DNA of 64,000 bases from an uncultured Cytophagales bacterium (GCA_964511645.1 CAZEGV010000001.1:11343-75342); one strand, 5' to 3'; counted from the first letter of the stretch, positions 1,586-63,670 are shown. Made by a program: numbers and translations. The notes: a model not told the origin generated them from the sequence alone.

Positions 1586-1725
1586 TGGCTTAGGGATCCG
1601 TCAGTAGACGGACTTTGTCGTGGTTTGTTTGAATCACATAAGCGTAGTATAACGAAGCGAAATGGGATGAGTAGCGAAAGCCCGGTCAAAATCATGAGGT
1701 ACGAAATGATTTTGGAAAGCTCCAA
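1586..1725 (+). repeat. Structured intergenic repeat copy E1 (Flavo-1-like), upstream of gatB
   Basis: GGCTTAGGGAT...GAGTAGCGAAAGCCCGGTC...GGAAAGCTCCAA, with a CCGTCAGTAGACGG hairpin inserted after AGGGAT. Confidence 0.8.
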
Positions 1726-1754
1726 AAGAAAGAAAATATTAGGATTAAATAATA

Positions 1755-3200
1755 ATGAGGGATAAATATCAAGAAGTAATCGGTTTAGAAATCCATGTGC
1801 AACTATCGACCAATACAAAGGCGTATTCGTCTGACATTGTAGAGTATGGTAGCTTACCTAATACCAATATTAGCCCTATTACTTTGGCTCATCCTGGTAC
1901 TTTGCCTAAGCCTAATAAAAAGGTATATGATTTTTCAATTAAGCTGGGTCTGGCTTTGGGTTGCGATATTACGGAGTTCAATTATTATGATAGGAAAAAT
2001 TATTTTTATCCTGATTTGCCTAAGGGTTATCAGATTACGCAGGATGCAACTCCTATTTGTGAGAATGGAAGCGTTCATATTAAAACAAAAAGTGGTGTAA
2101 AAAAAGAAATTAAATTAACGAGAATCCATATGGAAGAGGATTCTGGGAAGTCGATGCACCTTGATGGGGAAAGTGAGTCTTTAGTAGACCTTAACCGTGC
2201 TGGTACTGCCCTACTTGAGATTGTGACAGAGCCAGATATTCGTAATTCGGAAGAGGCGTATGCTTTTGTGACCGAAGTGCGGAAGCTTGTGCGTTATCTA
2301 GAAATCTGTGATGGGAATATGGAAGAGGGGTCGATGCGTTGTGATGCTAATATTTCTGTAATGAAAAAAGGTAGTGACACTTTTGGTACTAAAGTAGAGG
2401 TCAAAAACATGAATTCTATCCGAAATGTGGCACGAGCAATTGAGCATGAGATTGATAGACAAATAGAAATGAACGAAAATAATGAGGTTATTATTTCGGA
2501 AACTCGTTTGTTTGATGCTTCTGCAGGAACGACAAAAGCAATGCGTAAAAAGGAAGAGCTGAATGATTATCGGTTTTTTGCTGAACCTGATTTACAGCCT
2601 GTAACGGTTACCAAAGATTGGATTGAAAAGATAAAATTGGAGATGCCTGCCCTGCCCCATGAGTTATTCAAACGTTTTGTGACAGAGTATAAGCTACCTG
2701 AATATGATGCTTATGTATTGACCGACCAAAAAGATATTGCCCTGTACTTTGATGCGCTTTGTCAAGAGACGTCTAACTACAAATCTGCGTCTAACTGGGT
2801 GATGGGTGCTATGAAATCATATATGAATGAGCTGACCTTATCTGTGGCTAACTTCCCGTTAAGTCCTGCAAAGATGGCGGAATTAATTCGTTTTATAGAT
2901 GATGGAAAGATTAGTGTCTCTTCGGCTACAATGAATTTATTCCCTGAGTTAGTTAATCAGCCAAAAACATCTGTAAGTAAGCTTGCCGAAAAACTTAACC
3001 TTGTGCAAGACACGAACGAAGATGATATAAAATCTGTTGTGGAAGAAGTGTTGGCTCAATTTCCTGATAAAGTAGAAGCCTACAAAGCTGGAAACAAAAA
3101 CTTACTTGGGCTGTTTATGGGGCAAGCGATGAAGGCAACTGCTGGAAAAGCTGATCCAAAAAAAATCAATCAAATCTTAAGAGAAATATTAGAAGCTTAA
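1755..3200 (+). CDS. gatB: Asp-tRNA(Asn)/Glu-tRNA(Gln) amidotransferase subunit B
   Basis: IGLEIHVQL, FDRKNYFYPDLPKGYQITQ-like motif, RIHMEED, GSMRCDANIS, C-terminal YqeY-like tail. Confidence 0.97.
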   Translation: MRDKYQEVIGLEIHVQLSTNTKAYSSDIVEYGSLPNTNISPITLAHPGTLPKPNKKVYDFSIKLGLALGCDITEFNYYDRKNYFYPDLPKGYQITQDATPICENGSVHIKTKSGVKKEIKLTRIHMEEDSGKSMHLDGESESLVDLNRAGTALLEIVTEPDIRNSEEAYAFVTEVRKLVRYLEICDGNMEEGSMRCDANISVMKKGSDTFGTKVEVKNMNSIRNVARAIEHEIDRQIEMNENNEVIISETRLFDASAGTTKAMRKKEELNDYRFFAEPDLQPVTVTKDWIEKIKLEMPALPHELFKRFVTEYKLPEYDAYVLTDQKDIALYFDALCQETSNYKSASNWVMGAMKSYMNELTLSVANFPLSPAKMAELIRFIDDGKISVSSATMNLFPELVNQPKTSVSKLAEKLNLVQDTNEDDIKSVVEEVLAQFPDKVEAYKAGNKNLLGLFMGQAMKATAGKADPKKINQILREILEA

Positions 3201-3204
3201 TCAA

Positions 3205-4242
3205 ATGAAAAGAATATTATATATTAGTGTTGCACTATTACTATGGTCTTGTGATAAACAAACGGAAGGAAAAACTAGCGAAAAAACAGAGAACATAACA
3301 ACGAAAAAAACACCAAGCATCTCTCCTACTGCTGTTGTACACCTTATAAAAGGAACAATCAATACCCCTGATACAATCTTACCCAGTAAAGTTGAGCTAT
3401 ATAAAGCTCGTGGAAGAGAGAGTGTCCTACTAAACACTAGTAAGATAAATGAAGATGGGAGTTTTGAAATTGGACTTAATGATGATGAGTTGTGGCTATA
3501 TTCTCTTCGGGTTGATGATATGAAAATAGACTTTATCAATGATGTGAAAGAAATTGAAATCAACATCAGTCATAAAGGAGTTGAATTTCCTAATTCTAAA
3601 GAAAGTAGATTTGTACAACAAATCACAAATTTGCTACAATCAGGAAAAACAGCAGAAGTAAAGGAATTTGTACTGGATAACGCACCTAGTTATACTTCTT
3701 TTATTTATGTTTCATCTTTATCAAGAGATGATAATTATGATTTTATAAAGTCAGTAGCAAATAAGTTTTCGGAGAAAGAACATTTGTACGCAAGTAAATG
3801 GCTAAAGACTATCAATAGTTTTGTAGGAATTGGTTCACAAGCTCCTGAAATCAAATTACAAAATCCAGAGGGAAACACAGTTGCTCTTAGTAGCTTAAAG
3901 GGTAAGTATGTTTTGATTGACTTTTGGGCTTCGTGGTGTGGACCTTGTATACAGGAAATGCCGAATGTAAGAAATGCTTACGCTAAATATAAAAGCAAAG
4001 GTTTTGAAGTATTTGGAGTATCGTTAGATAGTGACAAAGGCAGGTGGAAAGCTGCTATACATCGCTTAAAATTACCTTGGACTCATGTTTCTGACCTTAA
4101 GAAATGGTCTTCTCCAGTTGTGTCTCAATATCAAATTTCTGGAATTCCTCATACTGTACTGATTGATCCAACAGGTAAAATCATTGCTAAAAACTTAAGA
4201 GGGACAGCACTAGAAGCTAAGCTTACTGAAGTATTAAAATAA
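3205..4242 (+). CDS. TlpA/ResA-like thiol-disulfide oxidoreductase lipoprotein
   Basis: Lipobox LLWSC; C-terminal thioredoxin fold with FWASWCGPC. Confidence 0.9.
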   Translation: MKRILYISVALLLWSCDKQTEGKTSEKTENITTKKTPSISPTAVVHLIKGTINTPDTILPSKVELYKARGRESVLLNTSKINEDGSFEIGLNDDELWLYSLRVDDMKIDFINDVKEIEINISHKGVEFPNSKESRFVQQITNLLQSGKTAEVKEFVLDNAPSYTSFIYVSSLSRDDNYDFIKSVANKFSEKEHLYASKWLKTINSFVGIGSQAPEIKLQNPEGNTVALSSLKGKYVLIDFWASWCGPCIQEMPNVRNAYAKYKSKGFEVFGVSLDSDKGRWKAAIHRLKLPWTHVSDLKKWSSPVVSQYQISGIPHTVLIDPTGKIIAKNLRGTALEAKLTEVLK

Positions 4243-4244
4243 AA

Positions 4245-4278
4245 AAATCCTAGTTTGAAAATATTCAAACTAGGATTT
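4245..4278. terminator. Bidirectional intrinsic terminator
   Basis: AATCCTAGTTTGAA-aata-TTCAAACTAGGATT between convergent genes. Confidence 0.8.
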
Positions 4279-4299
4279 AATAAAATTATTTTTTTACTA

Positions 4300-4700
4300 T
4301 TATGCTTCTTGATAATCAGTTGCACCACCTTCTATTCCTTTAGGGGTTACATACTCATTGTCTCCTGCATCACATAAGGCTGTGGTAAACTCATTAGATA
4401 CCCATATCTGGGCAAGCCATTTTAGTTCCCATCATTGCACCAAAGACTAGGTTTCTTTCATCTATTTGTTCTATGGTACCAGCAATTCTATTACATCCAT
4501 CAGACCCAAAAACTTTATTTTTATCAAAATTAAGAAGATGTTTTTTTCTTTGATACTTTCTAAGCGAGATATAGATAAGACTAACCACTCCCCTTTTATT
4601 GATAGTTCTTTATTTCTTTTTTTACCTTCATCTTATTTGTACTACAAGATATTAATAATCCTACGAGTATTAGTATGGTGATTTTACTTGTGATTAGCAT
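4300..4700 (-). pseudogene. META-domain (HslJ-like) lipoprotein, frameshifted
   Basis: Pieces in successive frames: MLITSKITILILVGLLISC (lipobox) / ELSIKGEWLVLSI / LNFDKNKVFGSDGCNRIAG...MMGTKMACPDM / SNEFTTAL; at least three frame changes needed. Confidence 0.7.
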
Positions 4701-5916
4701 TCCACCTTGCTTTTTGTTTTCTGTAAAACTTCATACGAGTTTGAGCTGCATCCCTATACCTAAATTTAAACTTGTCATAATCAATGATTTCAAGTAAGGT
4801 TAATTCTGCCTTCTCATATTCATTCATCCATCCATAAGCTTGTGCAATATTAAGTTTCATAGTTGCAGTCACGTGTTTATTTACTCTTGCTTTTTTATTT
4901 TCTAATTCTGACTCTTTCAAAACTCTATTCCATATTTTTATCGCTTCTAGCAATTTATTTTTGGATGATTTAAAATCTGTATTTAAATTCAAATACCCCT
5001 CTCTAGCAATAGAAAAACCCGATTGACAGTCGTCATAATTGAATTTCTTAGCTTTCACTTTATACAAGTTTTCATAGCGAACTTTGGGGCAGAACCCATA
5101 AAGCTCATTCAACCGCTCATAAACTAGCTTCATGTTTTTATCTACTATTTTTGATTCTAACATTCGTTTTATAGTAACCGTATCAAAAGAAGGAATTTTC
5201 GTTTTTGTATGCTTTGTTTCATATTTCACAAACTCACTTGTGCCTTCTAATAACTCATTTAGGAAAATCTTCCCACTATTATCTACTACCCTGATTCTAA
5301 CAGGGTGCTTATAAGACATCCTGTGCCAATAATATACGGCTGGTGAAGGCTTAGTTACACTCCTACTTTTGAGTTCTATTTTGGTAGATTGAAACCCATA
5401 TAAATGAGCCGAAATTTTTACTGCCTTTTCTGGCTTACCCTCAAACCCCTCAAGGTATAGATAAGAGGTGGCTAAGGTTTCGGTATTAAATATTTTTTGA
5501 TAATGCACTTGTCTCTTCTTAGGCTTTGGGGCAGCTACGTATGGGGCTGGTTTGTCTGGTATAGTACCTGTTTTTAGTACCTGAGTTTCTAATAAATAGC
5601 CTGCTAATGTTTTCTTCTTACCTGAATATAAGTTATCATAATACTGATCCATTCTAGCTTTATGACGTGTTTTAGATTGAAATTCTATCTCTTTATATTG
5701 TTTTAGCTCTTCATCATATTCTTCTTGTATCATTTTTTGATGTGCTAAAATATCTTCTTCATATTCCAAAACAACTGTTGATTGATAATACTTGGGCAGT
5801 AATAATACTGATGGCAATTGGGTATAATTAATTCCTATCTTACTCTGAATTATTTTTTGAGATAAGGATAGGTTAGCTATTAACAATAAGTGAAGTACTA
5901 GTAGTGTATTTTTCAT
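4684..5916 (-). CDS. Hypothetical exported protein, possible C-terminal TPR-like helices
   Basis: 410-aa ORF with N-terminal signal peptide; no family recognised. Confidence 0.65.
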   Translation of the reverse strand: MKNTLLVLHLLLIANLSLSQKIIQSKIGINYTQLPSVLLLPKYYQSTVVLEYEEDILAHQKMIQEEYDEELKQYKEIEFQSKTRHKARMDQYYDNLYSGKKKTLAGYLLETQVLKTGTIPDKPAPYVAAPKPKKRQVHYQKIFNTETLATSYLYLEGFEGKPEKAVKISAHLYGFQSTKIELKSRSVTKPSPAVYYWHRMSYKHPVRIRVVDNSGKIFLNELLEGTSEFVKYETKHTKTKIPSFDTVTIKRMLESKIVDKNMKLVYERLNELYGFCPKVRYENLYKVKAKKFNYDDCQSGFSIAREGYLNLNTDFKSSKNKLLEAIKIWNRVLKESELENKKARVNKHVTATMKLNIAQAYGWMNEYEKAELTLLEIIDYDKFKFRYRDAAQTRMKFYRKQKARWNANHK

Positions 5917-6001
5917 TGATTTTATAATTTAGAATTACTGACTTATCAAACATCTTACCAAAGATAGTTAATTACAATCATAAAGCTACATTATCACATA
6001 A

Positions 6002-6120
6002 TTGGCTTAGGGATTGACGTGGAAATCCTTCCTGATTTTTTTCATCGGGAAGATTGGGAACAGAAAGCCCGACCGTCTGGGCGAAATAGCCCAGAGAGTG
6101 AAATGAAAGGGAAGCCCCAA
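6002..6120 (+). repeat. Structured intergenic repeat copy E2 (Flavo-1-like)
   Basis: TTGGCTTAGGGAT...GAAAGCCCGACC...GGGAAGCCCCAA; inner hairpin CTTCCTGAT-ttttttc-ATCGGGAAG. Confidence 0.8.
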
Positions 6121-6175
6121 ATATTTTTTATTGCCTTTTAGGAAATATTAGCTAAATTAGCCACGTAGAATCTAC

Positions 6176-6760
6176 ATGATAATGATACAAATACCCGAAC
6201 ACATAAAAGGAATAATTTTTGACCTCGACGGAACACTTGCCGACACAATGTCTTTGCATTATAAGGCTTGTCAGCTCGTTTGTGAGCCTTATGGTATTGA
6301 GTTTCCGTATGAGTATTTTATCGCTAAAGCGGGAATACCTACACTAAAAGTTTTTGAAATGTTTGTAAAAGAGTACAAACACTCCGTAAATGGGCTAAAG
6401 CTAGGTGAGAAAAAGGAAAGGATTTTTCAGTCTTTAATCCCTACCGTAAAAGCAATTCCTGCTAGTGAACAATTATTACTAGCTAATCTAGGAAAAAGAA
6501 AAATAGCTGTGGGTTCTGGGGGAGATAGAGAGAGTGTAATAGCTACTCTTCAAGCAATTGGGCATATCAAAAACTTAGATTCTATAGTAAGTGCTGACGA
6601 AGTAGATTTGCACAAACCTCACCCCGATACGTTCTTGAAGTGTGCCGAAGAAATGAACTTAAGTCCTAATGAATGTATTGTTTTGGAAGATGCTCAACTG
6701 GGTTTTGAGGCGGCCATAAGTGCTGGAATGAAATATATCAATATCAACTTATATGTTTAA
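6176..6760 (+). CDS. HAD-family phosphatase (beta-PGM/YqaB-like)
   Basis: FDLDGTL motif I, KPHPD motif III, LEDA motif IV. Confidence 0.9.
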   Translation: MIMIQIPEHIKGIIFDLDGTLADTMSLHYKACQLVCEPYGIEFPYEYFIAKAGIPTLKVFEMFVKEYKHSVNGLKLGEKKERIFQSLIPTVKAIPASEQLLLANLGKRKIAVGSGGDRESVIATLQAIGHIKNLDSIVSADEVDLHKPHPDTFLKCAEEMNLSPNECIVLEDAQLGFEAAISAGMKYININLYV

Positions 6761-6762
6761 CA

Positions 6763-7287
6763 ATGGATTTGAAAAGAGCCTTAGAAAAAGAACATAGCAG
6801 AGCTAATACTAGCCAAATCATTTCTTACATTGGTCTAAGTGATGATAAGTTTAAGGTTTTGTTTGATCTATTTATTAACGGAAGCGATACCCTAAAGCAA
6901 CGAAGTGCTTGGGTGGTTGGAGATATTGGGGTAGAACAACCTTCAATGATTAAGCCTTATCTTAAGCGGTTAATCAATAATCTTGGTGCTCAACATCACA
7001 ATGCTATTTATCGCAATACTTTTAGGGTTTTGCAAGAGATAAACATCCCTACTCCACTGCAAGGAGAGGCAGTTGAATATGCTTTTGATTTTTTAACTAG
7101 GCAAGCTGTGCCTGTGGCAATAAAATCTTGTGCGATGAGTACAATATATAATATCAGTAGGGATAACCCTGAACTAAAACCTGAGCTTAAGCTGATTATA
7201 GAGGATCAAATGCCTTATGCATCAACTGGGTTTAAAGGTAGAGGTGCTAAAATCATTGCTAAGCTTAACAAAGAAATAACTGGGTGA
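6763..7287 (+). CDS. Conserved hypothetical helical (HEAT/ARM-like) protein
   Basis: Operon-coupled 174-aa ORF, predominantly helical pattern. Confidence 0.65.
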   Translation: MDLKRALEKEHSRANTSQIISYIGLSDDKFKVLFDLFINGSDTLKQRSAWVVGDIGVEQPSMIKPYLKRLINNLGAQHHNAIYRNTFRVLQEINIPTPLQGEAVEYAFDFLTRQAVPVAIKSCAMSTIYNISRDNPELKPELKLIIEDQMPYASTGFKGRGAKIIAKLNKEITG

Positions 7288-8480: not shown

Positions 8481-8698
8481 TTGCTTGCCGCAAAAAAAAA
8501 TCTTGCTCTTTTATCACTTTCAATTCATCAATAATTCTTCTTTCACTTACTCATAAACTCTTCTAATACAATAATCATCACTTAACAACATAGACTATTC
8601 TGCGGTCGTTCAAACTGCGATATTATTTTAATTACCCAAAAACGGCTTAGAAACAGAGTTATTTGTTTATACTTTAACGAGCTCAATATTAAAAAAGG

Positions 8699-27608: not shown

Positions 27609-29846
27609 ATGAAACAATTATTGATCTCGCTATTTGTATTAACAACATTAGTTAGTAATGCTCAAAATATAAACATACCTGACCCTAATTTTAAGGCGTA
27701 TTTGGTGGGTAATTCACTTATCAACACCGATAACGATACAGAAATACAAGTAAACGAAGCATCTTCCTTTACTGGGACAATTAATTGCTCTGGAAAAAAC
27801 ATTATAGACTTAACAGGAATCGAACAATTTATTAATTTAACAGAATTATTTTGTTATAACAATCAACTTACTGTATTAAATACTAGTTTTAATACATCAC
27901 TCACAGGTTTATATTGTAGAGATAATCAAATAATTAATCTAAACCTTACAAACAATCTTTCTCTAAAAACTTTACGTTGCGAGAAAAATAAATTAACCAG
28001 TTTAAATATATCAGGACTTAGTATGCTAACTGATTTAGACTGTTTTGAGAATCAACTCACTAGCTTAGATCTCTCTACAAGTATTGCCTTAGATGATTTG
28101 GACTGTAGGAATAATAAAATCACAAACTTAGCCCTCACCAACAACACAGCTTTACGCCTGTTAGATTGTAGAAATAACCAACTCACATACCTAAACACCT
28201 CTACAAACACTTTATTAACACAATTATGGTGTGGAAATAATCAGCTATCCAGTTTAAATACTTCTACAAATACTAATTTAGAGGAATTATGGTGTAATGC
28301 TAACCTGATTACAGGTTTAGATGTTACAAGTAATATTTTACTAACTCAATTATATTTTTTCAATAATCAAGTTTCAAATATTGATATCACTAATAATACG
28401 GCACTAAAAATATTACTTTGTGAAAATAATTTACTGACAAGTTTAGATGTTTCTACCAATACATCATTAACCCAATTAAGGTGTCATCATAACCAAATCA
28501 CAGCATTGGATGTTTCTACTAATACTAGTTTAATAGAGTTAACCTGTAACAACAACCAACTGACTAAGTTGGATATGAAAAATGGGAATAACTCAAGTAT
28601 GACAGCGTTATGGAACTTTAATGCTAAAATCAACCCCAACCTTACTTGCATCAATGTAGACGATGCTACATGGAGTAACGCAAACTTAAGCCATGGTATT
28701 GATGCAACAGCAAGTTTTAGCTCTAGTTGTTATACACAAACCGTATATATACCTGATACTAACTTTAAGGCATATCTACTAGGGCATAACGGTATAAACA
28801 TCAATCATGATAGTGAAATCCAAGTAAGTGAAGCAACTTCTTTTACAGGTATATTTTATTGTGATTACAAAACAATTTCAGACCTAACAGGTATTGAAGC
28901 ATTTACGTTATTAACGAAACTGCATTGTAAAGCTAATCAAATAAACAGTTTAGACTTATCTAAAAATACAGCTTTAACATACCTTGATTGTCAATTTAAT
29001 CAATTATCGAGTTTAGACCTATCTAACAACACAAACTTAACAGGTGAATTAAATTGTCAAAACAACCAGATCACTAGCTTGAACATAGCCAACAATACAG
29101 CTTTAACACGAATCAAGTGTGGTGGTAATAAATTAACAAATTTAGATGTTTCTATGAATATTAATTTGATCTCTTTAGATTGTTCTAATAATCAAATAAC
29201 CGAGTTAGATTTGTCTGATAACATTGAATTAAAAAGTTTAAACTGTCAAAGAAATATTTTAACAAGTTTAGATTTATCTTTTAATACTAATTTCACTTTT
29301 TTAAAGTGTTTTGAAAATCAATTAACAAGCTTAAACTTATCAAGTAATATAGGGTTAAGAAACTTATATTGCAATAAGAATAACTTAACAAGTTTAATTT
29401 TAGCTTCGAACCCAAATTTAGTAATTTTAGATTGTAGTGAAAACCAATTGATAAATTTAAACATCAAAAATGGAGGAAATTCCAATATGTCAGTTTATTG
29501 GACATTTAATGCTATAGACAACCCAAACCTCACTTGTATAAAAGTTGATGATGCTAACTATAGTACTACAACTTGGACAAAAATTGATGCTACAGCTAGT
29601 TTTAGCGAAAACTGCATAACAAGTATAAACAAAGAATTCACCAAACCGATTTTAAACTTATACCCCAACCCTGTTTCTGAGACCTTATACTTTGACAAAA
29701 CTTTATCAAACATCTTTATTTACTCAGCACAAGGTAAACTAATGGGAGAATATACTCAACTAGAGTCTTTGGATGTTTCTACCTACCCTACTGGAATGTA
29801 CCTTATCAAATCTGACAACGTGAACAGTCAGTTTGTGGTAAAGTAA
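27609..29846 (+). CDS. Secreted leucine-rich-repeat protein with T9SS type-A C-terminal domain
   Basis: Signal peptide; two capped LRR modules (about 12 and 9 copies of a 21-aa LxxLxCxxNxLTxLDxSxNxx repeat); LYPNP...GMYLIK CTD. Confidence 0.9.
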   Translation: MKQLLISLFVLTTLVSNAQNINIPDPNFKAYLVGNSLINTDNDTEIQVNEASSFTGTINCSGKNIIDLTGIEQFINLTELFCYNNQLTVLNTSFNTSLTGLYCRDNQIINLNLTNNLSLKTLRCEKNKLTSLNISGLSMLTDLDCFENQLTSLDLSTSIALDDLDCRNNKITNLALTNNTALRLLDCRNNQLTYLNTSTNTLLTQLWCGNNQLSSLNTSTNTNLEELWCNANLITGLDVTSNILLTQLYFFNNQVSNIDITNNTALKILLCENNLLTSLDVSTNTSLTQLRCHHNQITALDVSTNTSLIELTCNNNQLTKLDMKNGNNSSMTALWNFNAKINPNLTCINVDDATWSNANLSHGIDATASFSSSCYTQTVYIPDTNFKAYLLGHNGININHDSEIQVSEATSFTGIFYCDYKTISDLTGIEAFTLLTKLHCKANQINSLDLSKNTALTYLDCQFNQLSSLDLSNNTNLTGELNCQNNQITSLNIANNTALTRIKCGGNKLTNLDVSMNINLISLDCSNNQITELDLSDNIELKSLNCQRNILTSLDLSFNTNFTFLKCFENQLTSLNLSSNIGLRNLYCNKNNLTSLILASNPNLVILDCSENQLINLNIKNGGNSNMSVYWTFNAIDNPNLTCIKVDDANYSTTTWTKIDATASFSENCITSINKEFTKPILNLYPNPVSETLYFDKTLSNIFIYSAQGKLMGEYTQLESLDVSTYPTGMYLIKSDNVNSQFVVK

Positions 29847-29990: not shown

Positions 29991-30117
29991 TGGCTTAGGG
30001 GATAGAGCGGTTTGTCTGAAATCCTTTTCGATTTTTCATCGGAAAGATTGAGTAGCGAAAGCCCGACCCGAAAGTGTAATGAAGCGATAGCGAAATAAAA
30101 CAAAAGGGAAGCCCCAA
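29991..30117 (+). repeat. Structured intergenic repeat copy E4 (Flavo-1-like)
   Basis: TGGCTTAGGGGATAGAGCGG...GAGTAGCGAAAGCCCGACC...GGGAAGCCCCAA. Confidence 0.8.
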
Positions 30118-37860: not shown

Positions 37861-37877
37861 AACACGATAAATCGTGT

Positions 37878-38009
37878 TTGACTTAGGGATAGAGCGGTTT
37901 GTTTGAATCACAAAACGTAGCAGAGCGAAGTTTTTGGGATGAGTAGCGATAGCCCGACCATGAAGTAAAGCGAAGTGAAATGTAGCTGAACCTGAATGGG
38001 AAGTCCCAA
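37878..38009 (+). repeat. Structured intergenic repeat copy E5, between parA and parB
   Basis: TTGACTTAGGGATAGAGCGG...GAGTAGCGATAGCCCGACC...GGGAAGTCCCAA. Confidence 0.8.
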
Positions 38010-44957: not shown

Positions 44958-45425
44958 ATGAATTATAAAGAAATAGAATTGAAAGAAGTTTTGGATGACG
45001 AAAAAAGAAATGATTTAAAAAGCTTTATTTCTAATCATTCAAAAAAGCAATCTAAAGACAGATTATTGGCGAATAAATTATTATCGATACAATATCGAAT
45101 GGAAGATTACATTGGAAATGAAAATAATCAAAACGAAGTTTTTAAAATTCTTGATTTCGTAAAGATGTATTTAAAAGTATTAAACATTACTAAAAAAAGT
45201 CTTGCAAAATACTTTGAAATGGAGGATAGTAATCTTCATAAATATTTATCAGGGGAAAGAAAACTAAACGCTGAACTTGCTGTTAAATTAAGTTCTTTTT
45301 CTCATACAAAACCTGAACAATGGTATCGAGTTCAAATAAAAAATGAGCTTATTAAGTTTAAAAAAGAACAAAAAAATATAGATGATTTTAAAAAGTATGA
45401 CTTTAAAAACTTTGTTAGTGCTTAA
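44958..45425 (+). CDS. XRE/HigA-like HTH protein (putative antitoxin)
   Basis: ITKKSLAKYFEMEDSNLHKYLSGERKLNAELAVKL HTH and W.R.Q motif; starts 2 nt after the GNAT-like stop. Confidence 0.8.
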   Translation: MNYKEIELKEVLDDEKRNDLKSFISNHSKKQSKDRLLANKLLSIQYRMEDYIGNENNQNEVFKILDFVKMYLKVLNITKKSLAKYFEMEDSNLHKYLSGERKLNAELAVKLSSFSHTKPEQWYRVQIKNELIKFKKEQKNIDDFKKYDFKNFVSA

Positions 45426-45718: not shown

Positions 45719-45898
45719 GGCATAGGGATAGAGCGGTTTGTTTGAAATCCTTTTGTTATTTTTATAATTTGTCCATACTAAGCTTATTTGTATCACATTG
45801 AGCTTTTCGAAATGTCAAAAAATTATAAAAACAACAAAAGATTGAGTAGCGAAAGCCCGACCTATACTGACTGAGAAGGAAGTATAGGGATGCTCCAA
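45719..45898 (+). repeat. Structured intergenic repeat copy E6 (expanded), upstream of leuS
   Basis: GGCATAGGGATAGAGCGG...GAGTAGCGAAAGCCCGACC...GGGATGCTCCAA with 21-bp inner arms enclosing 49 nt. Confidence 0.8.
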
Positions 45899-50127: not shown

Positions 50128-51078
50128 ATGAAAAAAATATTATTACTAATAATTACATTAACATCGTTAAATGCTATTTCTCAGGATATAAATATTCCTG
50201 ATGTTAATTTTAAATTATACTTACTCAACAATCCTTATCTTAATACTAATAATGATAAGGAAATACAACTGAGCGAAGCTACAAGCTACTCAGGAGAAAT
50301 TAACTGTGGATATATATCCAATCAAGGATATGATCTAATTAAAGATTTAACAGGTATCGAATATTTTATTTCTCTTACCAGCTTAAGGTGTCATAATAAC
50401 AGACTAACAAAGTTAGATCTTTCACATAATATTGCACTAAGTAAATTAAACTGTGACAAAAATAAATTAACAGAATTAGACTTATCACAAAATCTTAACT
50501 TAACTGTACTACATTGTGGCAGTAATCGATTAAATGTTTTAAATTTATCTCATAATAAAGCTTTAACTACACTAGGTTGTGATAACAACAAAATAGCTAC
50601 ATTGGACTTATCTAGCAGTCTGAACTTAATAAACCTATATTGTCATAATAACCAATTATCTACTTTAAATATTGCAGGGAATAAAAATTTGGAGTACATA
50701 AATTGTTCAAAAAATAAAATTTCAGCTATTAACTTATCTCATCATCAAAACTTGAAAACTTTAGAGTGTGACATCAATCAGTTAATTTCTCTTAACACTT
50801 CTAACTGTACTGACTTAGTTAGTTTACGGTGTACCAAAAATCAACTCAAAAGCTTAGATATTTCACAAAACACTTCACTACTTTTTATCTTATGTGATAA
50901 AAATCAATTAACATATCTAAACGTTGCTAATGGTAATAATTACAATTTTAAAGATTGGGGTTTTAGTGCTAAAAACAATCCAGATTTAGCATGTATTCAA
51001 GTCGATGATAAAAAATACAGTAAGCTAAATTGGCAACAAAAAGACACTCAAGCTAATTATAGCCGTAGGTGTAAATAA
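50128..51078 (+). CDS. Leucine-rich-repeat protein, single module, no T9SS CTD
   Basis: Signal peptide, IPDVNFK N-cap, about 9 copies of the 21-aa LRR, NPDLACIQVDD C-cap then stop. Confidence 0.88.
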   Translation: MKKILLLIITLTSLNAISQDINIPDVNFKLYLLNNPYLNTNNDKEIQLSEATSYSGEINCGYISNQGYDLIKDLTGIEYFISLTSLRCHNNRLTKLDLSHNIALSKLNCDKNKLTELDLSQNLNLTVLHCGSNRLNVLNLSHNKALTTLGCDNNKIATLDLSSSLNLINLYCHNNQLSTLNIAGNKNLEYINCSKNKISAINLSHHQNLKTLECDINQLISLNTSNCTDLVSLRCTKNQLKSLDISQNTSLLFILCDKNQLTYLNVANGNNYNFKDWGFSAKNNPDLACIQVDDKKYSKLNWQQKDTQANYSRRCK

Positions 51079-51079: not shown

Positions 51080-51423
51080 AAGGTAGGTCATTCTATCGCT
51101 GCAGTCTATGACTGGAGAGGAAAGTCCGGGCAGCACAGAGCATCTTGCTTCCTAACGGGAAGAGTCTTGAGTAATCGAGATATAGAATAGTGCCACAGAA
51201 AATAAACCGCCACTTGTGGTAAGGGTGAAAACGTGAGGTAAGAGCTCACGCATCTTTGTGGTGACATAAAGGTGAGGTAAACCTCAGGAGCTGAAAGACC
51301 AAATAAACCAGCAATTAAGAGTTGCTCGCTCAATGCTGGAGGGTAGGTTGCTTGATTCTAACAGCAATGTTAGGGCTAGATAAATGATAGAACTCGACAG
51401 AACCCGGCTTATCGACCTGCCTT
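51080..51423 (+). ncRNA. rnpB: RNase P RNA (bacterial type A)
   Basis: GAGGAAAGTCCGGG and ACAGAACCCGGCTTAT universal P4 motifs; 5' AAGGTAGGTC pairs with 3' GACCTGCCTT. Confidence 0.97.
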
Positions 51424-51446
51424 ATTATTTTATTATAAAATCAGCT

Positions 51447-56498: not shown

Positions 56499-56720
56499 TT
56501 AATATTCATCTTCGTTGAATAGAAAATCATCTTTAGTCGGATAATCCGGCCATATTTCTTCTATAGTTTCATATGGTTCTCCATCATCTTCTAATTCTTG
56601 TAAATTTTCGGCAACCTCTGCTGGTGCTCCCCTTCTTATCGAGTAATCTATTAACTCATCTTTAGTAGCCGGCCAAGGCGCGTCTTCCAAGTATGATGCT
56701 AATTCTAGTGTCCAATACAT
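56499..56720 (-). CDS. DUF2795 small protein
   Basis: MYWTLELASYLEDAPWPATKDELIDY, highly conserved in Bacteroidota. Confidence 0.88.
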   Translation of the reverse strand: MYWTLELASYLEDAPWPATKDELIDYSIRRGAPAEVAENLQELEDDGEPYETIEEIWPDYPTKDDFLFNEDEY

Positions 56721-56814
56721 ATTTATTCTTTTTTTTACTATTAACTAATTGCAAAAGTAATTTATTTTTTCAAATCTGCAAGTTTATTTTAAAATACTCA
56801 AATTACGTACCAAA

Positions 56815-58044: not shown

Positions 58045-58068
58045 TGACTAAGCCTGCAACTTGCCTCA

Positions 58069-60069
58069 TCAATACCTTCCTAATATTTTTCTTACTGCCC
58101 ACTCGCAGATTAATAACACAATTAACAACACAAAAATCCATTTATAATGGATTATATCTTTATAAGTAACTAATTCCTTCAATAAAGTCGTTCCTTTATA
58201 CTTTTTAACATCTAACGAAAGAAAATCAACAAGGTTTAAAAAATCCCCCTTATTATTTTTAGCTAATTTTTGTAAGCCTGATTGATTCATTACTAAATCC
58301 ATCACTTCAATATTATTTTCTATTACAGAAAAGCTACCCTTTTTTATGTGTTTCACACCTTTATGGTTAATTTGAGTAGTATAGTAATACTTTCCTTGTG
58401 AAAATTGTTTTAGTTTATATACCGATTTAATATCTGACAGTACATAAGAAAATACTTTAGAACCTAATTCACCTTCTTTTTTGACAGTAACCCTAACAGG
58501 CATATTCCCTAATCGCTCTCCCGACTTCGTTGTAAAAGAAATATTTAAAACAGGCACTTCTATAGTGGAGTAAATTTGTTTATCCAAAAAAACCACTAAG
58601 CCTTGTTTATCCTCTTCTGAAGCACAGAAATTGATGAGCTTGTAAAAAAAATCTTCTACCACCTTCTCTTCCTTGCTATTTTCATACATCTTTAACCTCC
58701 ACCAACCATCTCCCAATACTACTGCTTGATGAGGTAATTGATTTGCTTTTATCGCTACGAGAGGTTTTTGAGTTTTTAACTCTCCTACTCTCTGATTCAG
58801 CACCGACTCACCACTATTAAGTATAATTTCACCAAAAGGAACAGACAAGGGCTGTACGCTACGGAACAAATCAAAGTTGTTATGCTCTATAACAAAATCC
58901 GAAAAACTAGTATTCAAGACAGGAAGCACCTCATCCGCATCAACAGAGTATTTTTTAAAGTTAAACCATCCTAAATTGATATTTTTTTTAGGGTCGATAA
59001 TAAAATAAATACTCCCTTTCTTTTCTACTTTTTGTTTTAGTACTCCTTTAGGAATTATATCACAAAAAACATATACATCTGCCTCAGTATCTTCTGAAGA
59101 GAGTTTTTCATACTCGTATTTAATTTTGACATTATACTTATCATTACTAGATAAAATCTCATCCAACATCCCTATTGTTGGATGAGGGTAAGCGGCGTAT
59201 ATTAATACTCGTTTGCTATCTTCTACAACGTTAACAGCAAAATACCTTTGATTATTATGAGGGTTTTGTTCTTCATCTATTTTTTTGACAAAAAGCTCGT
59301 ACCGATGCACCCCTACTGATTTTGCATTAAGCATTTTTGTGTACACAGCAGTCTCATTTACTAATAAAACATTCTGTTTATCTATTACCTCACCATCTTG
59401 CTTAAGAACAAGTGTCACCAAACGGTTATTAATCCCTTTTGCTCCAATATAAGCTTTGATAAGAAAATCATTTCCTTTAAAAATGCTCTTATTATAATTT
59501 ACTTTTTTTATAAAAATATCCTTTTGCTCTACCGACTCTCCTAAAGCAATTACATGAATCGGCATATTATAATATTGTTGGCTATAATCTAAGCCTACAT
59601 TATCAATTCCATCCGACAGAAAAAATACTCCTGCTAAGTTACTTCCATTGTACTTTTCCTTTACCCTTGATAAGGCTTGATGTATTGGACTTATTTTAGC
59701 TTTGTACCCATCTATCTTCTCTACTACTGACTCTTGATAAATCTTACCCCCTAGTTCTATTTCTAAATGTTTGATTTTTGTTTTTATTTTTTGTTTTTCA
59801 GTACTATCAAGTACCATATCTACAGATTTACTATTGTCCTGAAGCACAACATAGCTTGGCAGAATCTCAATATTACTATTGCTCTTGTATTGAGGTAAAA
59901 AAAATAGCAATAACAATCCTGCTACAGCAAAAAATCTAATTCCTGATAAAAAGTAATTTTGAAGCTTAGACCAAGATTCTTTTTTCTGATAAAGAATAAA
60001 CGCATAAGCCCCTGCCACCACAACGGTAACAAGTAATTGCCAAAATGATATATAAGAAAACACATCCAT
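58069..60069 (-). CDS. vWA-like membrane-anchored protein
   Basis: N-terminal TMs, LQDNSKSV, FLSDG.DN MIDAS-like motifs, C-terminal TM with EW..RK. Confidence 0.75.
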   Translation of the reverse strand: MDVFSYISFWQLLVTVVVAGAYAFILYQKKESWSKLQNYFLSGIRFFAVAGLLLLFFLPQYKSNSNIEILPSYVVLQDNSKSVDMVLDSTEKQKIKTKIKHLEIELGGKIYQESVVEKIDGYKAKISPIHQALSRVKEKYNGSNLAGVFFLSDGIDNVGLDYSQQYYNMPIHVIALGESVEQKDIFIKKVNYNKSIFKGNDFLIKAYIGAKGINNRLVTLVLKQDGEVIDKQNVLLVNETAVYTKMLNAKSVGVHRYELFVKKIDEEQNPHNNQRYFAVNVVEDSKRVLIYAAYPHPTIGMLDEILSSNDKYNVKIKYEYEKLSSEDTEADVYVFCDIIPKGVLKQKVEKKGSIYFIIDPKKNINLGWFNFKKYSVDADEVLPVLNTSFSDFVIEHNNFDLFRSVQPLSVPFGEIILNSGESVLNQRVGELKTQKPLVAIKANQLPHQAVVLGDGWWRLKMYENSKEEKVVEDFFYKLINFCASEEDKQGLVVFLDKQIYSTIEVPVLNISFTTKSGERLGNMPVRVTVKKEGELGSKVFSYVLSDIKSVYKLKQFSQGKYYYTTQINHKGVKHIKKGSFSVIENNIEVMDLVMNQSGLQKLAKNNKGDFLNLVDFLSLDVKKYKGTTLLKELVTYKDIIHYKWIFVLLIVLLICEWAVRKILGRY

Positions 60070-60076
60070 ATAAGTA

Positions 60077-60110
60077 AATAACGCATAAATAAAATTACTT
60101 ATGCGTTATT
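60077..60110 (-). terminator. Probable terminator after fabG
   Basis: AATAACGCATAA-loop-TTATGCGTTATT. Confidence 0.55.
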
Positions 60111-60129
60111 GTTATTAATTTCTACTTTA

Positions 60130-60882
60130 TTAAGTAAGCATTCCACCATCTACTTGCAATACCTGACCGGTAACGTAAGCAGACATATCAGAACCCAAGA
60201 ACACAGCACAATCAGCAATATCCTGACCTTGACCAATTCTTTTTAAAGGAATCCCTTTTATCCATTCCGAAGTTAGTTTTTCATCCAATTGAGCTGTCAT
60301 TTCTGTTTCTATAAACCCTGGTGCAATTGCATTAGATCTGATGTTTCTACTACCAATTTCTAAAGCAATAGATTTAGTAAATCCAATCATACCCGCTTTA
60401 GATGCCGAATAATTAGATTGTCCTGCATTACCACTAATCCCTACCACCGATGTAATATTGATAATAGATCCACTTCTTTGCTTCATCAATGGCTTCACAG
60501 CTGCTTTCACCACATTAAATACTGACTTTAAGTTTACCTTAAGTACAGCATCCCATTGTGCTTCATCCATTCTCATCAATAAGCCGTCTTTTGTAATTCC
60601 AGCATTATTTACAATAATATCAATATTACCAAACTCTTTAACGACATCATCTACCAAGACTTGTGCCGCATCATAATCCGAAGCATCCGATTTATACCCT
60701 TTTGCTTTAATGCCCATGCTAGCAAGTTCTTTTTCTAAAGCTAAAGCAGAGTCTACACTCGACAAGTAAGTAAACGCTACGTTAGCACCTTGCTCTGCAT
60801 AACGCAAAGCAATTGCTTTACCTATTCCTTTTGAAGCACCAGTAATCAGTGCATTTTTTCCTTCTAAAAGTTTCATATTCAT
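60130..60882 (-). CDS. fabG: 3-oxoacyl-ACP reductase
   Basis: TGASKGIG, NNAGITKDGL, NYSASKAG, VTGQVLQVDGGM. Confidence 0.93.
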   Translation of the reverse strand: MNMKLLEGKNALITGASKGIGKAIALRYAEQGANVAFTYLSSVDSALALEKELASMGIKAKGYKSDASDYDAAQVLVDDVVKEFGNIDIIVNNAGITKDGLLMRMDEAQWDAVLKVNLKSVFNVVKAAVKPLMKQRSGSIINITSVVGISGNAGQSNYSASKAGMIGFTKSIALEIGSRNIRSNAIAPGFIETEMTAQLDEKLTSEWIKGIPLKRIGQGQDIADCAVFLGSDMSAYVTGQVLQVDGGMLT

Positions 60883-60954
60883 CTATTTAATTTCAAACTA
60901 GAGTCCGCAAAATAGTTAAGACTTATAAGATTCGCAAGAGTCCTAAAAAAATAC

Positions 60955-60962
60955 TACCTTTG
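60955..60962 (+). promoter_or_regulatory. Bacteroidota -7 promoter element
   Basis: TACCTTTG 4 nt before the ATG at 60967. Confidence 0.45.
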
Positions 60963-60966
60963 TAGC

Positions 60967-61626
60967 ATGAATATTAGAGTATTTTACACCTTTTTAGTCA
61001 TTTTAACAGTTAGTCTTAGCAGTTGCTTCGAATTGTTGGAAATAGTAACACTTAGTGAAGACGGTAGTGGTTCAGCCAAAATCGTACTTAATATGAGTAG
61101 AAGTAGAACACAACTTAATGAAGTAACAAAAAAAGACTCTATCGGTAGCATTAAAATTCCTTCCCAAGAGAATGTGCTCAAGGCACTGAGTCACGCTACA
61201 GATACTTTATCTACGATCACTGGGATATCCAACGCTAAGTATAATGCTAATTTTGAAGATTATATCTTTACAATGACTGTTGACTTTGATTCCCCAGAGA
61301 AATTAAATACTGCTTATAATATATTGTTAAGTGGTAATAAGCACCTACGAGACTTATTTATTTATGCTTACAACAGTAATTTTTACTCTCGTACCATTAA
61401 TAGTAACGCAATTAACAAACTCAAACAACACAAAACATTATTATCTCTATACGGAATAGATAAAGGTAGGTTCACAACAATAGTCAAAACCAAAACTGAA
61501 ATCACAAACATTTCAAATCCAAAAACTAGATTAGCAACATCTCACAAATCAGTACTTAATCAAGTTACGATAGAGGAATTAATTAACACAAATAAACTCA
61601 ACCAATTAAAATTAAACTTCGAATGA
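60967..61626 (+). CDS. Hypothetical lipoprotein
   Basis: Lipobox LSSC, then E.....DGSG. Confidence 0.7.
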   Translation: MNIRVFYTFLVILTVSLSSCFELLEIVTLSEDGSGSAKIVLNMSRSRTQLNEVTKKDSIGSIKIPSQENVLKALSHATDTLSTITGISNAKYNANFEDYIFTMTVDFDSPEKLNTAYNILLSGNKHLRDLFIYAYNSNFYSRTINSNAINKLKQHKTLLSLYGIDKGRFTTIVKTKTEITNISNPKTRLATSHKSVLNQVTIEELINTNKLNQLKLNFE

Positions 61627-63521
61627 AAAAGATTTTTAGCACCCTAACACTTATATCTCTTACAAGTTTCATTGCTTTTGCTCAACCTTCCGAAAAAACT
61701 TTATTAAAAGTACCTAAAGATGCCATGATTGTCATGTCATTTAACTTTGAGCATTTTCTCGACAAAGTCAGCACTGATCAATTTAAGTCTTACGAAATGG
61801 TACAGTATGCCTATAAGATGATGAAAAAGGACATGGGAAAAGACAGTACAATTCTAAAAAAACTATATAAAAACCCAAAATCTTACGGATTAGCGATTAA
61901 TCCTGCCTCTGTCTATTTCCTTAAAGTGGATACCGCTGGAAAAAGTGTTAGAGACATGAATTTCACCAATGGGTTTATTGTCCCATTAAAATCAGGAAAG
62001 AAGTTTGAAAAATTAATGGTGCAAACAATGAAAGAAAAATTTATTGATTTTGTAGAACAAGAAAATGGTTACAAATACTACCTTGACAATGGAGTTGTAA
62101 TAGGCTGGGATAAAAAAAATCTTGTGTTAATGCTTTCTACAAATAAAGAAAAAACACTTTCCGAATTGAACCAATTTATGACTCAATCAAGTACAACATC
62201 TATTATTGGTGATGTTACTGCAAAAAAAGCACTTAGTACGGGTAATGACATCACTTATCTTTTAAAGATTGCTCCTCTTTTAGGTGTTTACAAAAAAGTT
62301 TTAGCCAAAGAGTTCAAAGGAGATGATTTCCCTAAAGAGCTGAACCCTTCACGCATACTCTCTTTATTTAACCTAGAAGACCAAAGTTCTACATTAGGGC
62401 TTAACTTTGATAATGGAACAATTGGTTATACTCAAACAAGTACTATAATGAAATCCCAGAGACAATTTAGCGACCTATTACAAAATGAGCGAGTAAACAG
62501 TAAATTCAGACAATACCTTCCTCATAATCAAGTGTATGGTATATTATCATTTGCTACAGACATCAAAAAGATGAGAGCGATGGAATATAACTCTGAAACA
62601 CAAGAAATTGCTGATAGTGTGCAAAGCTATTTTCAAGATGTACTTAAATTGGTATTGTTAGAAAATGACTCTTCTGTTATCCATCTCAAAGAGCAACGAG
62701 ACACATTAAAATGGAATGATTATGATAAAAAGAAAGAACTTTCTAAACAATTAAAAACACTAAAAGACTCTCTTTATGTACAAAAAGCAGACACTTTGCA
62801 GCACGCTATGGATTCGGTACTAACGGCATATAATCTTACTGAAGAAAACCTATGGAACATATTTAAAGGCGATTTCTTATTAGCGTACACAGGTTCTCAA
62901 GCTGTTATAGATACCTTTCTTACACATGATTATATAGAAAATGAAGATGGTGATTACGAATATAAATCCGTAAAAAAAACACGTTCAATCAATATTCCTA
63001 ACTTCAGGACTTTTGCTACATCCAATGCACCTCAACTATTGATTCAAATACTAGACACGTTAGTCTCTAACGAAAAGCTTAATAAAGAAGATGGTTATTA
63101 TGCTTTACCGATTCCGTTTGACAATGGTATTAATTTCTACTTTGCAGTGAAAGATAATATATTTTGTTTGTCTAACGACAAAGACTTTCTAACCAAAACC
63201 TTTATCACAGGCAAAATGGTAGAAAACCCAGTATCTGGAAAAGTGTATGATTTGGCATTTGGCAATATCAGTGCAGGATATTTTGACATTGCTCAAGCCA
63301 TCAACTTATTAGGAGATGCAAGACCAACAGGCTCTAGTGGTATGGTTTTACAAAAATTCCAAGATTTGTTCAACAATATATCAATGACATCCAACTACTA
63401 TAACGGGGAAACTAAATCTCAATTTAACCTCAATATGAACGGAGAAAAGAATAGTATATTACTATTAATGGATATGGGTAATGAGTTATTCTTAGAGTTT
63501 AATGGTGGTAGTCAGCATTAG
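61623..63521 (+). CDS. Exported protein (DUF4836-like)
   Basis: Signal peptide, VPKDA..V.S.N, C-terminal N.NSI..L pattern. Confidence 0.6.
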   Translation: MKKIFSTLTLISLTSFIAFAQPSEKTLLKVPKDAMIVMSFNFEHFLDKVSTDQFKSYEMVQYAYKMMKKDMGKDSTILKKLYKNPKSYGLAINPASVYFLKVDTAGKSVRDMNFTNGFIVPLKSGKKFEKLMVQTMKEKFIDFVEQENGYKYYLDNGVVIGWDKKNLVLMLSTNKEKTLSELNQFMTQSSTTSIIGDVTAKKALSTGNDITYLLKIAPLLGVYKKVLAKEFKGDDFPKELNPSRILSLFNLEDQSSTLGLNFDNGTIGYTQTSTIMKSQRQFSDLLQNERVNSKFRQYLPHNQVYGILSFATDIKKMRAMEYNSETQEIADSVQSYFQDVLKLVLLENDSSVIHLKEQRDTLKWNDYDKKKELSKQLKTLKDSLYVQKADTLQHAMDSVLTAYNLTEENLWNIFKGDFLLAYTGSQAVIDTFLTHDYIENEDGDYEYKSVKKTRSINIPNFRTFATSNAPQLLIQILDTLVSNEKLNKEDGYYALPIPFDNGINFYFAVKDNIFCLSNDKDFLTKTFITGKMVENPVSGKVYDLAFGNISAGYFDIAQAINLLGDARPTGSSGMVLQKFQDLFNNISMTSNYYNGETKSQFNLNMNGEKNSILLLMDMGNELFLEFNGGSQH

Positions 63522-63537
63522 ACCTAATTCCTAATTC

Positions 63538-63574
63538 AAAAAAAGGTCAAGAAATAATTTCTTGACCTTTTTTT
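63538..63574. terminator. Bidirectional intrinsic terminator
   Basis: AAAAAAAGGTCAAGAA-loop-TTCTTGACCTTTTTTT between convergent genes. Confidence 0.85.
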
Positions 63575-63670
63575 GTGCAATAGGGATAGAAACGACATCC
63601 TTTTTTTATCCTAAAACAATAACAAATAAAAAAGATACAGTGAATAGCCTGCCCCATAGGGATTGCCCTA
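63575..63670 (+). repeat. Structured intergenic repeat copy E7 (divergent subtype)
   Basis: GCAATAGGGATAGAAACGACATCCTTTTTT...AAAAAGATACAGTGAATAGCCTGCCCC...GGGATTGCCC. Confidence 0.7.

Follow-up and report, generated by a model that had tools for sequence, protein, structure and literature searches.

Flavo-1 repeats in a Cytophagales genome fragment are three-way junctions gained by insertion and kept foldable

The 64,000-nt stretch of DNA analysed here (the window; GCA_964511645.1, CAZEGV010000001.1:11343-75342) comes from an uncultured Cytophagales bacterium and carries eight copies of Flavo-1 (Rfam RF01705), of the subclass GCGUK-A-GGGAU...AGCCCGACC. The Flavo-1 hairpin is one arm, P1, of a larger three-way junction of about 95-180 nt. 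The element is a dispersed intergenic repeat that has multiplied in the source genome to about one copy per 8 kb. Copies are gained by insertion, as at the parA-parB junction, and inserted copies are kept foldable by selection. As for its mode of action, we favour, at a probability of about 0.5, a folded single strand that would most likely serve as a structural module in read-through transcripts, affect their processing or decay, and be spread by a trans-acting activity. To our knowledge, Flavo-1 is among the most abundant orphan 'small RNA' (sRNA) families in Rfam, and we know of nothing on its function since 2010. The hairpin itself was already known; the closing helix P0, the second hairpin P2 and the CCAAA tail described here extend it. 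With them the bare motif becomes a testable object, a closed three-way junction with defined ends, also in the tractable species Flavobacterium johnsoniae and F. psychrophilum.

Eight copies of Flavo-1 in the window

A first-pass annotation, made from the sequence alone, had described eight copies of a structured intergenic repeat and noted their resemblance to Flavo-1. A direct check of the window found all eight where they had been placed (E1 to E8, listed below). A 25-nt core with up to 3 mismatches gave four matches in the window and none in 100 shuffles. Further copies were collected by scanning a metagenome collection with a 19-nt core; only matches that also had AGGGAT upstream were kept, and about half of the 19-mer matches, which were chance occurrences in high-GC coding DNA, were filtered out. 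Because the window copies on their own gave a MAFFT alignment with too many gaps for defining a structure, the covariance model (R1) was built from 24 compact metagenomic copies, none of them from the window, with the structure set by hand. When R1 was run over the whole window with filters off, its best eight matches were exactly the eight claimed copies. The next match scored only 13.3 bits, and no convincing ninth copy is present in the window. Thus, the window holds eight copies that are not chance matches.

In Rfam cmscan, E2 (51.7 bits) and E7 (43.6 bits) exceeded the RF01705 gathering score of 42 bits, which E4, at 21.6 bits, did not reach. E1, E3, E5, E6 and E8 were not reported by Rfam and were found by R1 from their sister copies. 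At permissive E-values only Flavo-1 was matched at the copies, and the remaining weak matches in Rfam were chance. The original Flavo-1 seed alignment (Weinberg et al., 2010) holds identical GCGUK-A-GGGAU...AGCCCGACC sequences, so that the resemblance noted at first is borne out by both sources. The window copies share with RF01705 the hairpin GGGAU...AGCCCGAC, whose paired, covarying segments are split by symmetric purine-rich internal loops before AGCCCGACC. Among 80 copies, the P1 helices are 93-98% paired with compensatory changes, and the same columns pair in the original alignment. Orientation relative to genes is not fixed in either set. The host also fits, since Flavo-1 belongs to the Bacteroidota: window proteins carry the sorting domain of the type IX secretion system (T9SS), and the best ParB relatives are Cytophagales (66-75% identity).

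The published and Rfam motif differs in being a single hairpin of 76 positions with unpaired flanks. Most window copies are unlike it in carrying a conserved UUUGUYUG loop insertion or extra hairpins, and they fall below threshold. The Rfam model is therefore incomplete and misses most copies in the source genome, which matters for the annotation of Bacteroidota and for reading the structure of 5′ untranslated regions and operons. The density of about 1 per 8 kb in the window is far above that of Flavo-1 in the other loci examined. The family is typed 'Gene; sRNA' in Rfam and is classified likewise by Weinberg et al. (2010), whose supplement gives it one sentence, on taxonomy, and states no function.

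Two classes can be seen in the Weinberg alignment, GCGUK-A-GGGAU...AGCCCGACC and UAGCC-CCGAU...AGCGGGA, with the Rfam consensus corresponding to the latter. Several genomes in the alignment also share a second conserved apical module, CCCACAGCCUGACGAAGGAAGUGCGAGGAC.

The published hairpin is one arm of a three-way junction

A common plan is found in about 70 metagenomic copies. It reads Y at position -1 outside the element, then P0 5′ strand - A - P1 - GA - P2 - 1 nt - P0 3′ strand - CCAAA. P0 is a 5-bp closing helix formed by the two ends of the element, and its 5′ strand is usually GCGUU. P1 is the GGGAU...AGCCC hairpin. It is interrupted by an A.G mismatch, by a tandem G.A/A.G loop and by a second internal loop, which in the subfamily of the window has a conserved insertion GGUUUGUYUGA opposite GAGUA. 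P2 is a hairpin of any length closed by CC/GG. Apical P1 and the whole of P2 vary freely in sequence and length.

The closing helix was examined by a permutation test on 5-mers. In 56 of 70 copies, the tail contains the reverse complement of the 5-mer found before AGGGA in that copy; reverse complements of differing 5-mers from other copies are present in 3.2% of tails. There are 21 different P0 5-mers, and in most variant classes the tail contains the matching reverse complement (for example GCGUG/CACGC, GGCUU/AAGCC, GCAUU/AAUGC, GCAAU/AUUGC, GCACG/CGUGC and CGGCU/AGCCG). Covariation was then scored in an alignment of 84 model matches, 80 of them distinct. Standard pairs occupy 94.5% of the cells versus 75.0% in shuffles, a level reached by none of 500 shuffles, and cells changed on both sides number 324 versus 77.5. 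The covariation score is 0.49; sliding the partners by 1-3 columns lowers it to 0.105 or less. Each of the five P0 pairs has compensatory changes in 7-23 sequences. An alignment fitted to a model leans towards the structure; the 5-mer test does not have this weakness. The first-pass annotation had argued from the closing stem for selection on a fold, and the larger alignment upholds this: the closing stem and the other helices covary strongly.

When the original Flavo-1 seeds were read with their flanks, P0, P2 and the CCA tail were present in 10 of 10, including those of F. johnsoniae and F. psychrophilum. Thus, the published motif is one arm of a three-way junction.

The edges of the element are sharp. 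Position -1 is U in 55, C in 19, A in 6 and G in none of the 80 copies, and conservation stops abruptly there and after CCAAA. Of 78 copies, 62 have G-C as the first pair of P0. P2 is joined to the P0 3′ strand by 1 nt, and the strand is followed directly by C (75/77), C (62/77) and A (52/77). On inspection, no covariation was seen for an extension of P0 across CC, or for pairing of CC or CCAAA with GG or with the UUUG loops.

The copies in the window are as follows.

1587..1725 (+): E1, full element in which GGGAT is followed by an additional hairpin, CCGTCAGTAGACGG; P0 1587-1591 with 1717-1721, GGCTT/AAGCT, outer pair G.U; 29 nt upstream of gatB; R1 23.4 bits
6004..6120 (+): E2, canonical Flavo-1 hairpin inside the three-way junction; P0 6004-6008 with 6112-6116, GGCTT/AAGCC; P2 hairpin TCTGGGC...GCCCAGA; sense, in a divergent spacer, 55 nt upstream of a HAD phosphatase gene; R1 45.9 bits
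10954..11048 (+): E3, 3′-truncated, with P0 5′ strand GACTT, the E1-type extra hairpin and P1 up to GCCCGACC, without P2, P0 3′ strand or tail; antisense between two minus-strand genes of a glycosyltransferase region; R1 18.8 bits
29992..30117 (+): E4, best-scoring copy; P0 29992-29996 with 30109-30113; P1 with GGGGAT 29998-30003, loop GGTTTGTCTGA 30009-30019, apical hairpin 30021-30049 and GAGTAGCGAAAGCCC 30050-30064; then junction GA and CC, a purine-rich segment in place of P2, and the 3′ end GGGAAGCCCCAA 30106-30117; between the gene of a T9SS leucine-rich-repeat protein and a Nif3-like gene, 25 nt upstream of the latter; R1 74.5 bits
37880..38009 (+): E5, P0 37880-37884 with 38001-38005, GACTT/AAGTC; sense, in the 189-nt spacer between parA (stop 37860) and parB (start 38050); R1 71.2 bits
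45719..45898 (+): E6, P0 45719-45723 with 45890-45894, GGCAT/ATGCT, outer pair G.U; long insert in apical P1; P2 CCTATACT/AGTATAGG; 32 nt upstream of leuS; R1 63.7 bits
55056..55090 (-): E8, 35-nt mini-copy of P0, AGGGAT, E1-type hairpin and CCCTTAA; P0 GCGTG 55089-55085 with CACGC 55063-59; antisense between the plus-strand genes of a T9SS GH18 protein and an EamA transporter; R1 16.0 bits
63577..63670 (+): E7, canonical Flavo-1 hairpin with minimal P2 CCC-CATA-GGG; P0 63577-63581 with 63662-63666, GCAAT/ATTGC; convergent spacer by aspA, just after a terminator-like hairpin followed by T7; R1 32.1 bits

The closing stems pair as first described, GCTT/AAGC in E1, E2 and E4, ACTT/AAGT in E5, GCAT/ATGC in E6, GCAAT/ATTGC in E7 and GCGTG/CACGC in E8, and each extends to 5 bp. 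Some details of the first description had to be amended. AGGGAT opens the other copies, E4 instead having AGGGGAT. The supposed GG...CC tail has two parts that do not belong together: its GG pairs with the CC of GACC to close the variable hairpin P2, and its CC, which follows the closing stem, belongs to the conserved unpaired CCAAA. E8, which has no 3′ half of the Flavo-1 hairpin, is identical to E1 over 22 of 22 nt (AGGGATCCGTCAGTAGACGGAC). E3 and E8 show that a truncated and a miniature form exist.

Copies are gained by insertion

The window lies within a 98-kb metagenomic contig, and one further copy in the next 10 kb brings the count to nine in about 76 kb. No close relative of the source organism has been sequenced: a comparison of its ParB with 5.8 billion proteins gave 73-75% identity at best, and the nearest named relatives belong to the Cytophagales (Roseivirga, Fulvivirga, Cyclobacteriaceae). 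The local gene order is kept in the three nearest relatives, where 1-3 nt separate the called parA and parB genes. The parA-parB spacer measures 189 nt in the window versus a median of 11.5 nt in 80 relatives, 68 of which have 61 nt or less. The larger spacers of the other 12 hold unrelated sequence and no Flavo-1. E5 sits in this 189-nt spacer where most relatives have a near-empty junction of about 1-30 nt, and it is therefore an insertion. An empty orthologous site, for which the first-pass annotation had proposed to look, is thus present at parA-parB.

The load of copies differs between lineages. With filters off, R1 found no copy in 44 kb from the three nearest relatives, and it found two in 1.37 Mb around parB in 80 Bacteroidota genomes. 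Rfam gave no Flavo-1 hit in 146 kb of Flavobacteriaceae loci. The genomes of F. psychrophilum and F. johnsoniae are 2.9 and 6.1 Mb in size. The first half of the Weinberg et al. (2010) alignment lists at least 35 copies from the former and at least 12 from the latter, an unequal load within one genus. Flavo-1 is thus gained by insertion and differs in density by more than an order of magnitude between lineages, yet it appears to be under purifying selection at fixed sites.

Other replicons were also searched. No blastn match was found in plasmid or phage collections, and a scan of viral contigs returned only chance matches in high-GC coding DNA. The Weinberg et al. (2010) alignment lists two copies from Bacteroides plasmids. 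GC skew in the window tracks gene direction and is uninformative on the replication strand.

Several arrangements of copies were noted along the way. Locus L150 has two tandem direct copies 342 nt apart (423-899). Locus L182 has a head-to-head inverted pair 45 nt apart (1102-1392) and a third copy 7.5 kb away. At L205 (4242-5346), two inverted Flavo-1 copies flank a MazF/PemK-like toxin gene and a small upstream open reading frame (ORF), which are likely a toxin-antitoxin pair. A 19-nt palindrome, CTGCCTGCCGGCAGGCAGG, lies inside the P0 3′ strand of the copies at L129 (~1597-1615) and L136 (~5569-5587) and the orthologous copy in L123 lacks it. This palindrome looks like another mini-element, REP-like and with Flavo-1 as its target. 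In F. psychrophilum (NC_009613), the upstream flanks of six identical copies are near-identical over at least 100 nt, apart from small indels in repeat runs. Downstream, three tail variants differ from just after the P0 3′ strand, and the loci diverge beyond. With flanks shared upstream and diverging downstream, the element marks the end of a six-copy repeat, for which rRNA operons could be a candidate.

Constraint after insertion

Five loci share an orthologous spacer with the element between the genes of an iron-sulfur (FeS) subunit and an NrfD-like membrane subunit, the proteins being 88-97% identical. The element is 80-98% identical among them, as compared to 54-69% for third codon positions and 21-57% for the upstream spacer, and its differences are concentrated in hairpin loops. 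The last P0 pair changes among these loci from U-A (two loci) to G-C (two loci, or three if the near-duplicate L196 is counted), with G.U as an intermediate in one locus. At an orthologous pair of hisS-ABC permease loci, the element is kept in place at 76-81% protein identity, and P2 and apical P1 have entirely different sequences in the two copies. Elements at orthologous loci are maintained either by purifying selection or by repeated conversion from other copies. Covariation and slow evolution at orthologous sites are the grounds for concluding that folding is under selection. Since some copies are long-lived and constrained at fixed loci, a purely selfish element is too simple a description.

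Gene context and orientation

Flanking ORFs were assigned to a set of 80 copies drawn from all loci, no two of them identical. All are intergenic, with none inside a long ORF. In the window, five of eight copies (E1, E2, E4, E5 and E6) have their 3′ ends 25-55 nt ahead of the start codon of a co-directional gene; of the other three, E3 and E8 are antisense and E7 occupies a convergent spacer. Among the 80 copies, divergent spacers outnumber convergent ones (14 vs 4), and the gene that follows a copy is co-directional in 46 cases vs opposed in 23. There is thus a mild preference for the sense, upstream side, yet antisense copies are common.

The neighbouring genes are functionally unrelated (gatB, HAD phosphatase, Nif3, parB, leuS, ABC permease, NrfD-like protein). 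An all-against-all comparison of 455 flanking ORFs gave orthologous groups only, with no recurrent protein family or enzyme beside the copies. Neither a conserved promoter box at a fixed upstream distance, including TAnnTTTG, nor a terminator downstream of the element was found in the 80 copies.

Within the element, the loop GGTWTGTYTGA (30009-30019 in E4; also in L093, L095, L119, L156, L163, L178 and L180) often reads TATGTTTG. This equals what we take to be the -7 promoter box of Bacteroidota, TAnnTTTG. The element edge, T(-1)G(+1), lies about 17 nt upstream of the TATGTTTG loop, and an outward promoter may be built into the element, as judged from its sequence.

How Flavo-1 may act

By analogy with other intergenic repeats, the folded single strand would be the unit that matters. 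Sense copies that are read through, in 5′ leaders, operon spacers and 3′ ends, would place a stable three-way junction into mRNA, and the junction could influence transcript processing or decay, as ERIC, REP and BOX repeats do. The element may be spread by an activity encoded elsewhere, with the conserved junction and not terminal inverted repeats as its recognition site. In F. psychrophilum, some Flavo-1 hits lie in mapped 5′ transcribed regions, and hits are either sense or antisense to transcribed regions (PMC9723704).

A number of observations weigh against this proposal. On the side of spread, target-site duplications, for which a search had been suggested together with the empty sites, were absent: the best register and length gave 7 of 77 copies versus about 2 expected. 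There are no conserved terminal inverted repeats; the ends are complementary only in P0, whose sequence differs between copies in a compensating manner. The window codes for no transposase, reverse transcriptase or integrase, as the first-pass annotation had said, and none was found next to the ~80 copies. Copies within the genome are 60-83% identical in model columns and the same subtypes co-occur in another contig, so the family is old and not a recent burst. Its core sequence is conserved across the phylum, which is unusual for families of MITEs (miniature transposable elements with inverted repeats) or repetitive extragenic palindromes (REPs).

On the side of an RNA role, the orientation bias is weak. 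Tandem contexts are sense in 24 and antisense in 16 cases (p = 0.27), or about 20 and 14 after orthologous loci were collapsed by hand. Antisense copies are common and are also kept at orthologous loci; therefore, an RNA role confined to sense copies cannot explain all of the constraint. Many F. psychrophilum hits lie outside transcribed regions (PMC9723704). G.U/U.G cells number 44 versus 27 for A.C/C.A (p = 0.057), which favours the annotated strand only weakly. Single copies have ordinary predicted folding energies (z from +0.3 to -2.8), which were not used as evidence; the structural case rests on covariation. The conserved tandem G.A loops do seem to resemble RNA motifs. Taken together, the evidence on RNA versus DNA is mixed.

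In a different reading, which we regard as unlikely, the ends of the junction would be a tRNA-like 'punctuation' signal. The paired ends and CCA would be recognised by tRNA-maturation enzymes, with RNase P acting at the 5′ edge and 3′ exonucleases or RNase Z at the CCA; polycistronic mRNAs would be cut or a small stable RNA released, and dispersal would be secondary. Bacterial RNase P cleavage is favoured by U(-1), G1:C72 and RCCA. Flavo-1 has mostly U or C and never G at -1, a first P0 pair that is mostly G-C, CCA after P0, a P2 that reaches the P0 3′ strand via 1 nt like a T arm to the acceptor stem, and sharp edges that would need neither promoter nor terminator. Copies are present and conserved within operons (parA-parB, FeS-NrfD-like), and the six identical F. 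psychrophilum copies stand exactly at the end of their repeat. A discriminator base between stem and CCA is missing, however, P0 has 5 bp and not 7, T-loop and D-loop motifs are absent and conservation is lacking in the P2 loops. A search of the window with ARAGORN gave no tRNA-like gene, and about 40% of the copies in tandem contexts are antisense to their neighbours. In its widest form, equally doubtful, Flavo-1 would be a phylum-wide tRNA-like or SINE-like (short interspersed nuclear element) repeat that is cut from transcripts and spreads via an RNA or single-stranded intermediate guided by structure. If true, the element would set the ends of mRNAs both within operons and where repeat units end, and its mechanism of spread would be unlike known insertion sequence (IS), MITE or REP systems.

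It is just as improbable that the element works purely at the level of DNA, as a single-stranded (ssDNA) or cruciform fold that is the site for a nuclease, a recombinase (HUH/RAYT-like or other) or a host DNA-binding protein, with transcripts irrelevant. Both orientations relative to genes occur and persist, promoter and terminator are lacking, the constraint is on intrastrand pairing with variable stem sequence, and target duplications are missing as in IS200/IS605-type ssDNA elements. The Bacteroidetes have their own subclass, 2.6, of REP-associated tyrosine transposases (RAYTs) with 'atypical' flanking structures (PMC6006769); the sequences tabulated for it, however, are simple hairpins of 20-49 nt, mostly 20-35 nt, unrelated to Flavo-1. 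No HUH, Y1 or RAYT gene was found in the window or beside the ~80 copies, and no enzyme recurs among the genes between closely spaced copies. The 35 F. psychrophilum copies show no strong replichore bias under either plausible origin, positions being assumed, and the conserved non-Watson-Crick purine loops with a mild G.U excess look like RNA. Free-standing sRNA genes, in which each copy is its own transcription unit acting in trans, have the Rfam type and the Weinberg classification in their favour, as well as an orientation independent of neighbouring genes. They are nevertheless very hard to reconcile with 80 copies that show no promoter or terminator of their own, many of which fill spacers of <200 nt inside operons, and with the many hits that are not transcribed (PMC9723704). 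A riboswitch or leader that regulates particular downstream genes is similarly remote. It would fit the five window copies close ahead of a start codon and the bias to co-directional genes and divergent spacers, but the downstream genes are unrelated, antisense and 3′ positions are common, and relatives have no copy at the same genes (none upstream of parB in 83 of them), so that neither a constant 5′ position nor related genes are seen. The gene contexts thus already contradict it. The first-pass annotation had judged a gene-specific riboswitch the poorer fit, and the unrelated neighbours, both orientations, uneven density and empty parA-parB junctions agree; copies always 5′ of related genes, the outcome that would have spoken for a cis-regulator, were not observed.

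Comparison with known repeat systems

The folded element in read-through transcripts has its best functional analogy in ERIC/BOX/Correia-type repeats. ERIC/IRU, BOX, RUP and Correia (NEMIS) elements are likewise intergenic repeats of 100-180 nt that occur in both orientations, vary in copy number between lineages, have modular or truncated variants and differ between relatives by empty sites. They are also co-transcribed with flanking genes and form stable RNA folds, which we count as a likeness. Unlike Flavo-1, they have terminal inverted repeats and in most cases duplicate a target, TA or similar. Their sequences do not reach beyond a genus or family, whereas Flavo-1, a three-way junction, has a phylum-wide core.

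REP/REPIN sequences with their RAYTs resemble Flavo-1 in being abundant, extragenic, constrained in intrastrand pairing and free of target duplication. They depend on a single-copy enzyme encoded elsewhere and can stabilise mRNA in either orientation. Unlike Flavo-1, REPs are simple hairpins of 20-40 nt with a GT[AG]G foot, often in inverted doublets. As a candidate class, REP/REPIN was rejected: the element is a 95-180-nt three-way junction and no palindrome with a GT[AG]G (or CGTC) foot, no RAYT gene lies in the window or beside the ~80 copies, and only one adjacent inverted pair was seen (L182). GTAG does occur inside GAGTAGCG, only in the subfamily of the window; the seed alignment has ACAG, AUAG or AAAG there. 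MITEs were rejected as well, because the 5-bp, compensating P0 is all that stands in place of conserved terminal inverted repeats matching an autonomous IS, and because of the missing target duplications. The first-pass annotation had proposed a mobile, REP/REPIN-like or structured-RNA element; a dispersed, structured and inserted element stands, and the defining features of REP/RAYT and MITE systems do not.

Like tRNA-like elements (plant mitochondrial t-elements, mascRNA, tRNA-derived SINEs), Flavo-1 has paired ends followed by CCA, U at -1, a first G-C pair, A-rich sequence downstream, no promoter of its own and many dispersed copies. It differs in having three arms and not four, a 5-bp stem, and no discriminator base, T loop or D loop.

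Other features of the window

63545-63574: a terminator-like hairpin, GGTCAAGAAATAATTTCTTGACC, followed by T7, immediately upstream of E7, which therefore lies just past the predicted transcript end of the upstream gene
37862-37877: a 16-nt palindrome, ACACGATAAATCGTGT, which fills the space from the parA stop to E5
44958-45425 (+): the gene of a protein that has a HigA-like antitoxin domain; it lies just upstream of E6's long spacer
27900-29400 and 50300-50900: leucine-rich-repeat arrays with a 63-nt period inside two genes, the largest direct-repeat family of the window; the gene with the first array encodes a T9SS-sorted, internalin-like protein
51080-51427 (+): bacterial RNase P RNA class A, 271.5 bits over the full model length

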